Positions 9,983 to 10,934 of a DNA stretch of 14,139 bases are shown piece after piece. Position 1 is the first letter of the stretch, and every line of letters starts with the position of its first letter. The position numbers and the translations under genes were made by a program. Source of the DNA: a virus (Duplodnaviria > Heunggongvirae > Uroviricota > Caudoviricetes); the IMG/VR virus record IMGVR_UViG_2703718781_000011; one strand, written 5' to 3'. Under the pieces are notes generated by a model that made no database searches, was not told the origin of the DNA, and saw only the letters and a list, made by a program, of their open reading frames with translations.

Positions 9983-10390
9983 ATGGAATTTAAAGATTTA
10001 CCAACGCCATTACAGGAAATGGCATCGAATATAGTTCGTTCACAACTGGCTACTCTTGACCTTAGTACCGCAGAAAAAGAAACCATCGATAATATGGTTC
10101 GTAATGTGCGCAATGCTTTTTCTGGGCTATATGGTTCTGATAATCAAAAGCAGGAAAGCGATGTTAATAAACGGGTAATTTCTGTTTGCGTGAATGGCCA
10201 TGTTCTTTCATCAATCAAAACAGAAACGGCGACAGTCTTCGATTGCCTTTGCATTGTACAGAGCCTTGTTGATGCCCTGTTTCGTTCAGTGAATTTAGAA
10301 AATGATGCAAATCTGCGAGGGCGCATAATAGCACATCCATATGCACATACTTTAGGCTCTGTGGATATCAAAGATCCCACAAATCTTTAA
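9983..10390 (+). CDS. Hypothetical AT-rich orphan protein, 135 aa
   Basis: GAGG SD 8 nt upstream of ATG. No recognisable motif. Its 3' end overlaps the 3' end of the convergent minus-strand ORF by 23 nt. Confidence 0.6.
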   Translation: MEFKDLPTPLQEMASNIVRSQLATLDLSTAEKETIDNMVRNVRNAFSGLYGSDNQKQESDVNKRVISVCVNGHVLSSIKTETATVFDCLCIVQSLVDALFRSVNLENDANLRGRIIAHPYAHTLGSVDIKDPTNL

Positions 10391-10601
10391 TGAAATAGTT
10401 AACGCGAATTGTACTTGCTCTTTCGGTTGCTTTCAGAATACGCGTTGAAACTGCTGGCGGTAATTTGGTATTCCATTTATTAAAATCATGCCCGGGAAAG
10501 TACTCTTCGAAAATACTTTTAACTGCAGACTCGCCTATTGAAATGCTGCTTACCATGCGATTTTGATAAAGGCATTTAGCAATAAGAGTTGATTTTAACA
10601 T
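10368..10601 (-). CDS. Hypothetical small protein, 77 aa, transcribed against the surrounding operon
   Basis: Strong SD AGGAGG 5 nt upstream of ATG on the minus strand. Convergent with and overlapping the 135-aa ORF. No family recognised. Confidence 0.5.
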   Translation of the reverse strand: MLKSTLIAKCLYQNRMVSSISIGESAVKSIFEEYFPGHDFNKWNTKLPPAVSTRILKATERASTIRVNYFIKDLWDL

Positions 10602-10934
10602 TCACCCTCCTGAGGGTTGGTAATTAAGGAGTTCTCCACGGGTGAAGTGGAGTGCGTGCGCCGGACACGGGTGAACATCCGGCACTGACAGTTTACTGAA
10701 AGGATATTTCTCTGAAAAGTCAGACCATAACGCGAAAGCGCACGGCGAGGTAGCTGGTTCATAGATAGCCTGTCGTTAAATTTTCGTCGACCGTGCGCTT
10801 CCGGTTGTGGCAATCCGCGAAATGGCGCGGCGGTAAGTATGGAGGGGTTATTCCTTCCCCGTTGAGGACACCGGGTTGTCAGGTTGACCATACGCTTAAG
10901 TGACAACCCCGCTGCAACGCCCTCTGTTATCAAT
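10602..10934. other. GC-rich, hairpin-dense non-coding region (candidate structured RNA or processed leader) between the 77-aa ORF and dicF
   Basis: No credible ORF. Hairpin gccgga...tccggc (10650-10673); long-range 9-bp stem agcgcacgg/ccgtgcgct (10727-10735 with 10781-10789); hairpin ccgcg-aaatgg-cgcgg (10805-10820); 9-bp stem gggttgtca/tgacaaccc (10863-10871 with 10891-10899); a loosely repeated CGCGAAA-GCGC motif (10721 and 10804). Strand of expression unknown. Confidence 0.3.

Follow-up and report, generated by a model that had tools for sequence, protein, structure and literature searches.

The virus record IMGVR_UViG_2703718781_000011, a stretch of 14,139 nucleotides (nt) here called the window, is recognizable as a lambdoid prophage of Shiga-toxin-producing Escherichia coli; positions 9700-11200 are 100% identical to the ompW-integrated prophage of the O26:H11 strain 11368 and to phage records named "PPompW." The subject of this analysis is the interval between ydfC and dicF in the dicBF-type operon of this prophage (9983-10934), which an original prediction had described as a single module of roughly 950 bp, consisting of two small open reading frames (ORFs) on opposite strands and a hairpin-dense noncoding region. 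Small RNAs and division inhibitors encoded by prophages have a model in the dicBF operon, which is present in multiple copies in Shiga-toxin-producing E. coli.

The cassette and the dicF leader

The interval is a composite of a 634-bp cassette (9981-10614) and the canonical dicF leader (10615-10935). Pairwise alignment to E. coli K-12 falls into three segments: the window matches K-12 over 9742-9980 (ydfC and a few further bases), a clean gap then covers exactly 9981-10614, with no K-12 counterpart, and the match resumes from 10615, through the leader and then DicF. Only these 634 bp are new relative to K-12, and about one-third of the interval was already known. An insertion relative to the Qin prophage of K-12 had been predicted, which holds for the two ORFs but not for the 321-nt leader, shared with K-12; the insert is 634 bp rather than about 950 bp. 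The accompanying assumption that dicF in K-12 lies only about 80 nt past the last small ORF was mistaken, the distance between the end of ydfC and dicF in NC_000913.3 being 340 nt. With regard to the K-12 Qin operon (ydfA-ydfB-ydfC-leader-dicF-dicB-ydfD), ydfC, the leader, dicF, and dicB of the window are 95 to 100% identical and occur in the same order, whereas the two-gene cassette between ydfC and the leader occupies a place where K-12 carries no gene. The features are listed in Table 1.

Table 1. Features of the interval upstream of dicF and of DicF itself, in window positions
Feature	Positions	Strand	Basis
Mosaic cassette, 634 bp, in the polymorphic slot between ydfC and the dicF leader	9981..10614		K-12 Qin lacks it
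135-amino-acid (aa) forward (operon-strand) gene	9983..10390	+	ORF; phrog_1363
77-aa convergent gene	10368..10601	-	ORF; phrog_10348
23-nt overlap of both coding 3' ends	10368..10390		ORF coordinates
Ribosome-binding segment (CTCAGGAGGGTGA) of the 77-aa gene	10602..10614	-	Same letters before unrelated convergent genes
Canonical dicF upstream leader, untranslated part of the dicBF transcript, outside the insertion	10615..10935	+	K-12 identity
DicF small RNA	10936..10987	+	Rfam RF00039, 76.7 bits, full length

The comparison shows that the hairpin-dense noncoding region is the ordinary dicF leader of dicBF-type early-left operons: the structured RNA corresponds to the canonical leader because the K-12 alignment covers 10615 onward. 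The leader is 97.2% identical to the K-12 ydfC-dicF spacer over 321 nt, directly adjoins a DicF that is 100% identical to K-12 dicF, and retains 88 to 100% identity among loci with and without the cassette, K-12 included. Its GC content is 0.53, and its minimum free energy is -138.9 kcal/mol (z = -2.39), an equally stable fold being found in 1 of 100 shuffled sequences. Thus, the predicted stable hairpins stand insofar as the fold is more stable than that of shuffled sequence, but a single perfect 9-bp stem (10873-10881 / 10901-10909), not two, is present, the remaining perfect local stems measuring 5 to 6 bp. The repeated motif CGCGAAA..GCGC was seen correctly, at 10731 and 10816 (2 occurrences versus 0.06 expected by chance). 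Across 12 leader variants, the covariation term is -0.48, which says nothing either way because the helices, nearly invariant, hardly vary. Rfam holds no family for the leader and gave nothing in 9950-10935; in permissive mode, a scan of 9950-11000 returned DicF only. According to the part of PMC5069750 that cites Faubladier 1990, the DicF 5' end is made by RNase E-dependent processing in K-12.

These results bear directly on the idea that all of the approximately 950 bp constitutes one new RNA-plus-small-protein module of this prophage, serving exclusion, toxin-antitoxin, or regulatory functions. Both ORFs are indeed uncharacterized and the leader is structured, but the RNA component is the canonical dicF leader, present in loci without the cassette and near-identical in K-12, and the two genes occur together in other genera with neither dicF nor the leader nearby, which makes a single module barely credible. 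The long structured leader is the invariant background of the locus and not its novelty.

Further observations concern the leader and the position of dicF. The most invariant leader block across the 12 variants, 10816-10845 (…CCGCGAAATGGCGCGGCGGTAAGTATGG…), holds a four-codon mini-ORF, ATG GCG CGG CGG TAA. At some dicB-type loci (L018 at ~4660-4730, L104, L037, L038, and L045), the leader core (equivalent to ~10780-10920) is nearly unchanged, but the RNA at the dicF position is a diverged hairpin without the DicF 5' seed (TTTCTGGTGACG), and the Rfam DicF model does not match it. These diverged RNAs may be DicF-position small RNA variants with different targets.

Two uncharacterized genes

The 135-aa and 77-aa ORFs are, by the evidence of homologs, real, conserved, and uncharacterized genes. 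The original description of them was accurate: the forward ORF is AT-rich (GC content of 0.36 to 0.40 across the cassette, versus 0.48 in the window and 0.53 in the leader) and carries no recognizable Pfam or NCBIfam motif, the opposite-strand ORF is preceded by a good Shine-Dalgarno sequence (GGAGG, 4 to 5 nt before the ATG) and overlaps its neighbor at the 3' end by 23 nt, and the families to which the two belong are annotated "unknown function." The 77-aa protein matches phrog_10348 over residues 1-77 (E = 1.1e-47) and the 135-aa protein matches phrog_1363 over residues 1-130 (E = 4.8e-47); RefSeq labels both hypothetical. Scans of the two proteins against Pfam, NCBIfam, and PADLOC (E ≤ 1) produced no match, and a PDB sequence-profile search produced nothing credible (best E = 0.04). 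No publication on either gene turned up when the literature was queried with protein accessions and locus tags, which counts against the excludon model described below.

Homologs of the 77-aa protein with 55 to 72% identity were found in Klebsiella, Dickeya, Xenorhabdus, Salmonella, Morganella, Yersinia, and Serratia, and an exhaustive profile search collected 163 representatives of the family at 50% identity, nearly all of 74 to 80 aa; the length is almost always exactly 77 residues. The protein is basic (isoelectric point [pI] of 9.5) and predicted to be a soluble five-helix protein with a predicted local distance difference test score (pLDDT) of 96.8. It appears to be real because of the constant length, this score, and the 163 family representatives. 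A Pfam scan of 76 family members found nothing, and a Foldseek search against BFVD returned a family member as its sole match. Sequence clusters are all named "hypothetical"; a stray label of the 77-aa protein as "dGTP triphosphohydrolase" is not credible at that size.

The 135-aa protein has a composite layout, with an E. coli N-terminal module, hereafter the N-module (residues 1-~52, 9983-~10140), a disordered linker, and a C-terminal domain, or C-domain (residues ~62-135, ~10166-10387). The N-module (MEFKDLP...; the first ~50 residues) is 60 to 85% identical to many E. coli proteins with other C-terminal parts. For example, the homolog of the forward gene in an Stx2a phage has the N-module in common, differs in the C-terminal region, and is not accompanied by a reverse gene. 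The predicted structure of the 135-aa protein (overall pLDDT of 66) comprises an N-terminal helical hairpin, disordered linker residues 46-60, and a C-domain with a beta-hairpin and helices (pLDDT of about 77); a structure search with this model gave no match. The pI is 5.3. Neither cassette protein is hydrophobic (grand average of hydropathy of -0.13 and -0.17), and no transmembrane character was seen in them.

These properties set the pair apart from the systems that had been proposed for it. As a compact two-gene unit on a mobile element, the cassette resembles toxin-antitoxin modules, and some type I toxin-antitoxin systems likewise have 3' ends that overlap in antisense. Unlike in toxin-antitoxin modules, however, both genes encode conserved, predicted soluble proteins of 75 to 80 aa or more. 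With respect to type I, there is no small hydrophobic toxin peptide and Rfam detects no noncoding antisense RNA in 9950-10935, and the antisense unit encodes a conserved, confidently predicted protein; with respect to type II, the genes are convergent and do not form a co-directional operon, and no Pfam, NCBIfam, or PADLOC match exists. Membership in a toxin-antitoxin family or in a known exclusion or defense family is likewise not borne out by these three databases, nor by any hydrophobic toxin-like peptide. A known antiphage defense or superinfection-exclusion protein would be expected to match PADLOC or to have the membrane topology of SieB, and the cassette proteins do neither.

An exchangeable slot in E. 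coli and a conserved pair in other genera

The cassette was found in 650 of 5,426 complete E. coli genomes, almost always in a single copy and mostly in O157:H7, O26, O145, O111, and O103; 589 of the copies are at least 99% identical. The surroundings of the cassette were surveyed in 88 loci fetched via the N-module, in each of which the forward gene, the leader start, and the reverse ORFs were mapped. The slot upstream of the dicF leader holds about 8 alternative fillings among these loci (Table 2). Conserved across the slot types are the first ~50 codons of the forward gene, the dicF leader, and, in several types, the ribosome-binding site of the reverse gene; the C-terminal domain of the forward gene and the entire reverse gene are swapped. 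The junction ...CCAACC/CTCAGGAGGGTGAA(A)ATG next to leader position 1 is identical for four unrelated reverse genes (C1, C2, C3, and C6), and the frameshifted reverse ORF of the F3 type starts at that CTCAGGAGGGTGAA(A)ATG junction too. Two more reverse genes have ATGGAGGATAAAATG in common, beside a second leader variant. The ribosome-binding segment 10602-10614 is absent from K-12. This pattern shows 9981-10614 to be an exchangeable accessory cassette in a recombination-prone slot of the operon.

Table 2. Slot types upstream of the dicF leader among the 88 loci
Forward gene	Reverse gene	Overlap	Loci
135 aa (F2, type of the window)	77 aa	23 nt	15
201 aa (same C-domain plus extra tail)	Different, 63 aa	23 nt	2
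124 aa, runs straight into the leader	None		36
124 aa	73 aa	11 nt	4
124 aa	148 aa, two-transmembrane	None	6
106-109 aa	91 aa	23-32 nt	15
133 aa (YmfJ-like, F3)	ORF apparently frameshifted		4
122 aa (YmfJ-like, F4)	100 aa, YmfI-like (C4)	77 nt	4
208-212 aa	69 aa	0 nt (abutting)	3

Several unrelated, uncharacterized reverse-strand genes share a translation-start junction immediately ahead of the leader, and the slot supplies a set of small proteins to test, including a predicted new fold (the 77-aa protein) in 12% of complete E. coli genomes.

Other cargo was noted at related loci. At L038-L043 (2954-3400, minus strand), a 666-nt insert encodes the 148-aa reverse-strand protein, for which two membrane helices are predicted and which weakly matches the SLATT effector domain of DRT defense systems (PADLOC PDLC03794, E = 0.002). 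This match is the only defense-like hint in the slot, and the protein is unrelated to the 77-aa protein. In the dicB-type prophage at L105 (1694-2172, plus strand), a PaaA2/ParE toxin-antitoxin pair lies between the repressor gene and a ydfA-like gene, which again points to turnover of cargo in the operon.

Of 15 prophage loci sampled outside E. coli, 14 have the 77-aa gene facing a convergent partner, in most cases with an overlap that is again 23 nt long. When all loci retrieved from the 77-aa side were searched with hidden Markov models, 12 of the 13 had the partner opposite the 77-aa gene (a locus search with a narrower family alignment gave 4). Retrieval from the partner side added two loci, one from Leclercia and one from a metagenome, and in both a gene of the 77-aa family overlaps the partner 3' end. 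Prophages of Dickeya, Serratia, and Klebsiella invariably have a 77- to 79-aa gene convergent to the 77-aa gene, with a 23-nt overlap; this overlap length recurs in Proteus and Leclercia, and overlaps of 26 to 51 nt were observed in Hafnia, Citrobacter, and one metagenome locus. In the 77-aa protein, the overlap codes for the tail IKDLWDL, which is strongly conserved; in the partner, it codes for a tail that varies. The partner is usually the first gene left of a CI-like (helix-turn-helix/S24) repressor, on the strand of the early-left operon, and aligns with residues ~62-135 of the 135-aa protein at 35 to 42% identity, with about 20 invariant positions. Taken together, these comparisons show that the 77-aa gene and the partner C-domain form what is, to judge by its distribution, an old gene pair of enterobacterial lambdoid prophages.

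An unusual partner was observed at the Citrobacter locus L009 (4001-4420, plus strand), where a ClpX-type C4 zinc finger (PF06689; proteins P0181 and P0208-P0210) forms the N-terminal part of a fusion with the C-domain. The opposing 77-aa homolog at this locus (4370-4612, minus strand), counted among the 12 paired loci, was missed by the source annotation.

Proposed convergent expression of the pair

The cassette is classified with prophage early-left accessory cassettes and convergent gene pairs. In a convergent excludon, overlapping transcripts lead to mutually exclusive expression through polymerase interference and RNase III, and a 2025 map of overlapping transcription in K-12 includes ymfI-ymfJ of the e14 prophage and sieB-ydaF of Rac among such excludons (PMC12288877). 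As in these two pairs, a small early-left gene downstream of a CI-like repressor is overlapped at its 3' end by a small gene on the opposite strand, and the cassette genes are opposite-strand neighbors with converging 3' ends that overlap by 23 nt of coding sequence. The e14 layout in K-12 consists of the repressor ymfK, ymfJ, and then the convergent ymfI, with a 63-nt overlap; furthermore, a YmfJ/YmfI-like pair (F4/C4) fills the same dicF-upstream slot in some E. coli prophages. During an SOS time course, ymfJ showed a late rise to a log2 fold change of 4.8, and ymfI reached only 2.0 (PMC11002266). Overlapping transcripts have thus been detected for both K-12 pairs (PMC12288877), and the forward gene is induced with the prophage (PMC11002266). 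Homology of the cassette pair to e14 YmfI and YmfJ was considered and rejected (hhalign probability of <1% for both proteins), and unlike SieB, which is a membrane protein, the 77-aa protein is predicted to be soluble.

No intrinsic terminator was found on the plus strand in 9600-11200, nor on either strand between the 135-aa and 77-aa genes. Transcription of the operon can arrive at dicF only by passing antisense through the 77-aa gene, as the original prediction had recognized, so that convergent interference is a reasonable inference. Upstream of native 77-aa genes in six other genera lies a conserved element, TT(T/C)ACC, 16 to 17 nt, TGgTAT(C/T)CT, which resembles an extended -10 sigma-70 promoter, precedes a short, conserved 5' untranslated region, and points to the immunity region. 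This same element contains, over a conserved stretch of ~45 nt followed by TGGTAT(C/T)CTT (L004 of Serratia 4930-5000, L010, L020 3930-3965, and L009), two mutually exclusive inverted repeats that show compensatory changes (GCCGGG/CCCGGC versus GCCTGA/TCAGGC); an RNA switch or a promoter combined with an operator are both conceivable. The inverted repeat was rejected as a CI operator, its half-sites not recurring in cI-cro regions.

The best-supported model for the cassette, which we infer from its architecture and from analogy, is that of an excludon. As long as the repressor (DicA-type in this prophage) keeps the early-left promoter off, the reverse gene could be expressed; upon derepression, RNA polymerase collisions and double-stranded RNA over the overlap would suppress the reverse gene, and the forward partner, dicF, and dicB would be made. 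Because the window lacks the native promoter-like element, the 77-aa gene would have to be expressed there from an antisense start located within the dicF leader or past it. The explanation as a whole, namely, the ordinary leader joined to an exchangeable cassette whose old gene pair acts as a convergent excludon, has in our estimation about an even chance of being correct.

Several observations weigh against it. Concerning expression, only 13 nt separate the ATG of the 77-aa gene from the leader in the window, where the native upstream element is absent; a consensus scan of the minus strand over 10602-10935 found no promoter, and the best antisense candidate in the leader (TTTTCA-17-TAAACT, 10718 to 10690) has a weight-matrix score of 9.6, which is not significant (median shuffle maximum of 8.2, 95th percentile of 12.1). 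The native promoter-like element itself coincides with two alternative hairpins and may be something else. Concerning pairing, the commonest slot type (36 of the 88 loci) has no reverse gene at all, a solo 77-aa homolog in Psychrosphaera is followed by a terminator, so pairing is not obligatory, and the 201-aa variant in E. coli combines the same partner C-domain with a different reverse gene. Selection on the protein within E. coli cannot be read from the ratio of nonsynonymous to synonymous substitutions, which is uninformative for near-clonal copies with 2 alleles among 15 loci.

Some of the same observations could be explained if the 77-aa gene were independent silent cargo, that is, a moron that lost its promoter in the E. 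coli dicBF slot and persists as a dead passenger, the overlap reflecting genome compaction. The cassette indeed shares with prophage morons (lambda rexAB, sieB, and BstA-type loci) a place near the immunity region, an AT-rich composition relative to the flanks (GC content of 0.36 versus 0.48 to 0.53), as is typical of horizontally acquired cargo, and variable presence; in other genera, the 77-aa gene has an apparent promoter of its own opposite the lytic operon. Unlike in morons, no terminator was found and no promoter was detected in the window copy, the promoter-like element occurring elsewhere, and unlike the known early-left exclusion morons, the proteins match no defense or exclusion protein and the gene is consistently coupled to a specific convergent partner. 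The missing native element, the loci without a reverse gene, and the one type with a frameshifted reverse ORF would all fit a passenger. Yet the 77-aa ORF is intact in 15 of 15 loci examined, the cassette is highly uniform in 589 of the 650 genomes, and an identical strong Shine-Dalgarno/ATG junction before four unrelated reverse genes and the F3 ORF is hard to explain if they are not expressed, so that silent cargo appears decidedly improbable. Were the genes silent or functionless in E. coli, the region would be ordinary prophage mosaicism.

An RNA-level function has also been considered, in which antisense transcription dampens leaky read-through into toxic dicF and dicB and the encoded protein is secondary. 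The division inhibitors dicF and dicB downstream are toxic (PMC5069750), reverse-strand units that differ entirely in what they encode share one position immediately before the leader, and the K-12 prophages provide an excludon precedent. However, K-12 and the commonest slot type do without a reverse gene, no promoter was identified in the window, and the 77-aa sequence is strongly conserved in genera that lack dicF, which indicates selection on the protein itself; insulation as the main function is very unlikely.

Within the excludon model, the tight coinheritance suggests that both proteins act on the same process in opposite prophage states. As a rival to that model, they might be a cognate pair: upon induction, the forward C-domain would act as an effector against host or phage, and in the lysogen, the 77-aa protein would be its specific inhibitor or counter-regulator, so that the two would work like a toxin and antidote or a regulator and anti-regulator, with convergent transcription as the switch. 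The pair is coinherited across about 11 genera, down to about 30 to 40% identity and with the tail-to-tail geometry kept, even as the N-terminal additions of the partner vary (none, the E. coli N-module, or a ClpX-type zinc ribbon); the modest pLDDT of the partner C-domain alone (about 77) would fit folding on a partner, and the charge trends of the 77-aa and 135-aa proteins are opposite (pI of 9.5 versus 5.3). On the other hand, neither protein resembles any toxin, antitoxin, or defense family in Pfam, NCBIfam, or PADLOC, the genes are convergent rather than cotranscribed, the Psychrosphaera and 201-aa cases break the pairing, and linkage alone would give coinheritance of adjacent genes. A cognate pair is thus possible but doubtful. 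Unlikely, and farther reaching, is a more general proposal: the 77-aa protein and the partner C-domain would be a cognate two-protein switch of new folds, its halves made in opposite prophage states via convergent transcription beside the repressor of many enterobacterial lambdoid prophages, and the dicF-upstream slot of E. coli would be an exchange site for such opposed pairs, through the shared N-module and the ribosome-binding-site/leader flanks. For instance, one protein, made in the lysogen, might inhibit the other, a host-takeover or exclusion factor made upon induction.

The importance of the locus rises if the two proteins are a cognate switch and falls if the reverse gene is silent in E. 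coli. The slot offers a natural system for asking whether convergent transcription produces mutually exclusive lysogenic and lytic expression in prophages and, second, whether it buffers toxic dicF/dicB expression.

Between dicF and dicB, the minus strand carries a promoter-like site at 11097-11070, TTAACA-16-GAGAAT (9 of 12 consensus positions), which K-12 has in identical form. Speculatively, a transcript from this site would run antisense to DicF and the leader, up to the shared ribosome-binding site of the reverse genes.

Elsewhere in the window, a full-length match to the sok antisense RNA (3670-3819, minus strand; Rfam RF01794, 103.9 bits) implies a hok/sok-type type I toxin-antitoxin locus in the same prophage, and small minus-strand ORFs at 3517-3729 overlap this match. 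Two tRNA genes are located at the left end of the window, at 147-220 and 314-386 on the minus strand (72.5 and 68.1 bits).

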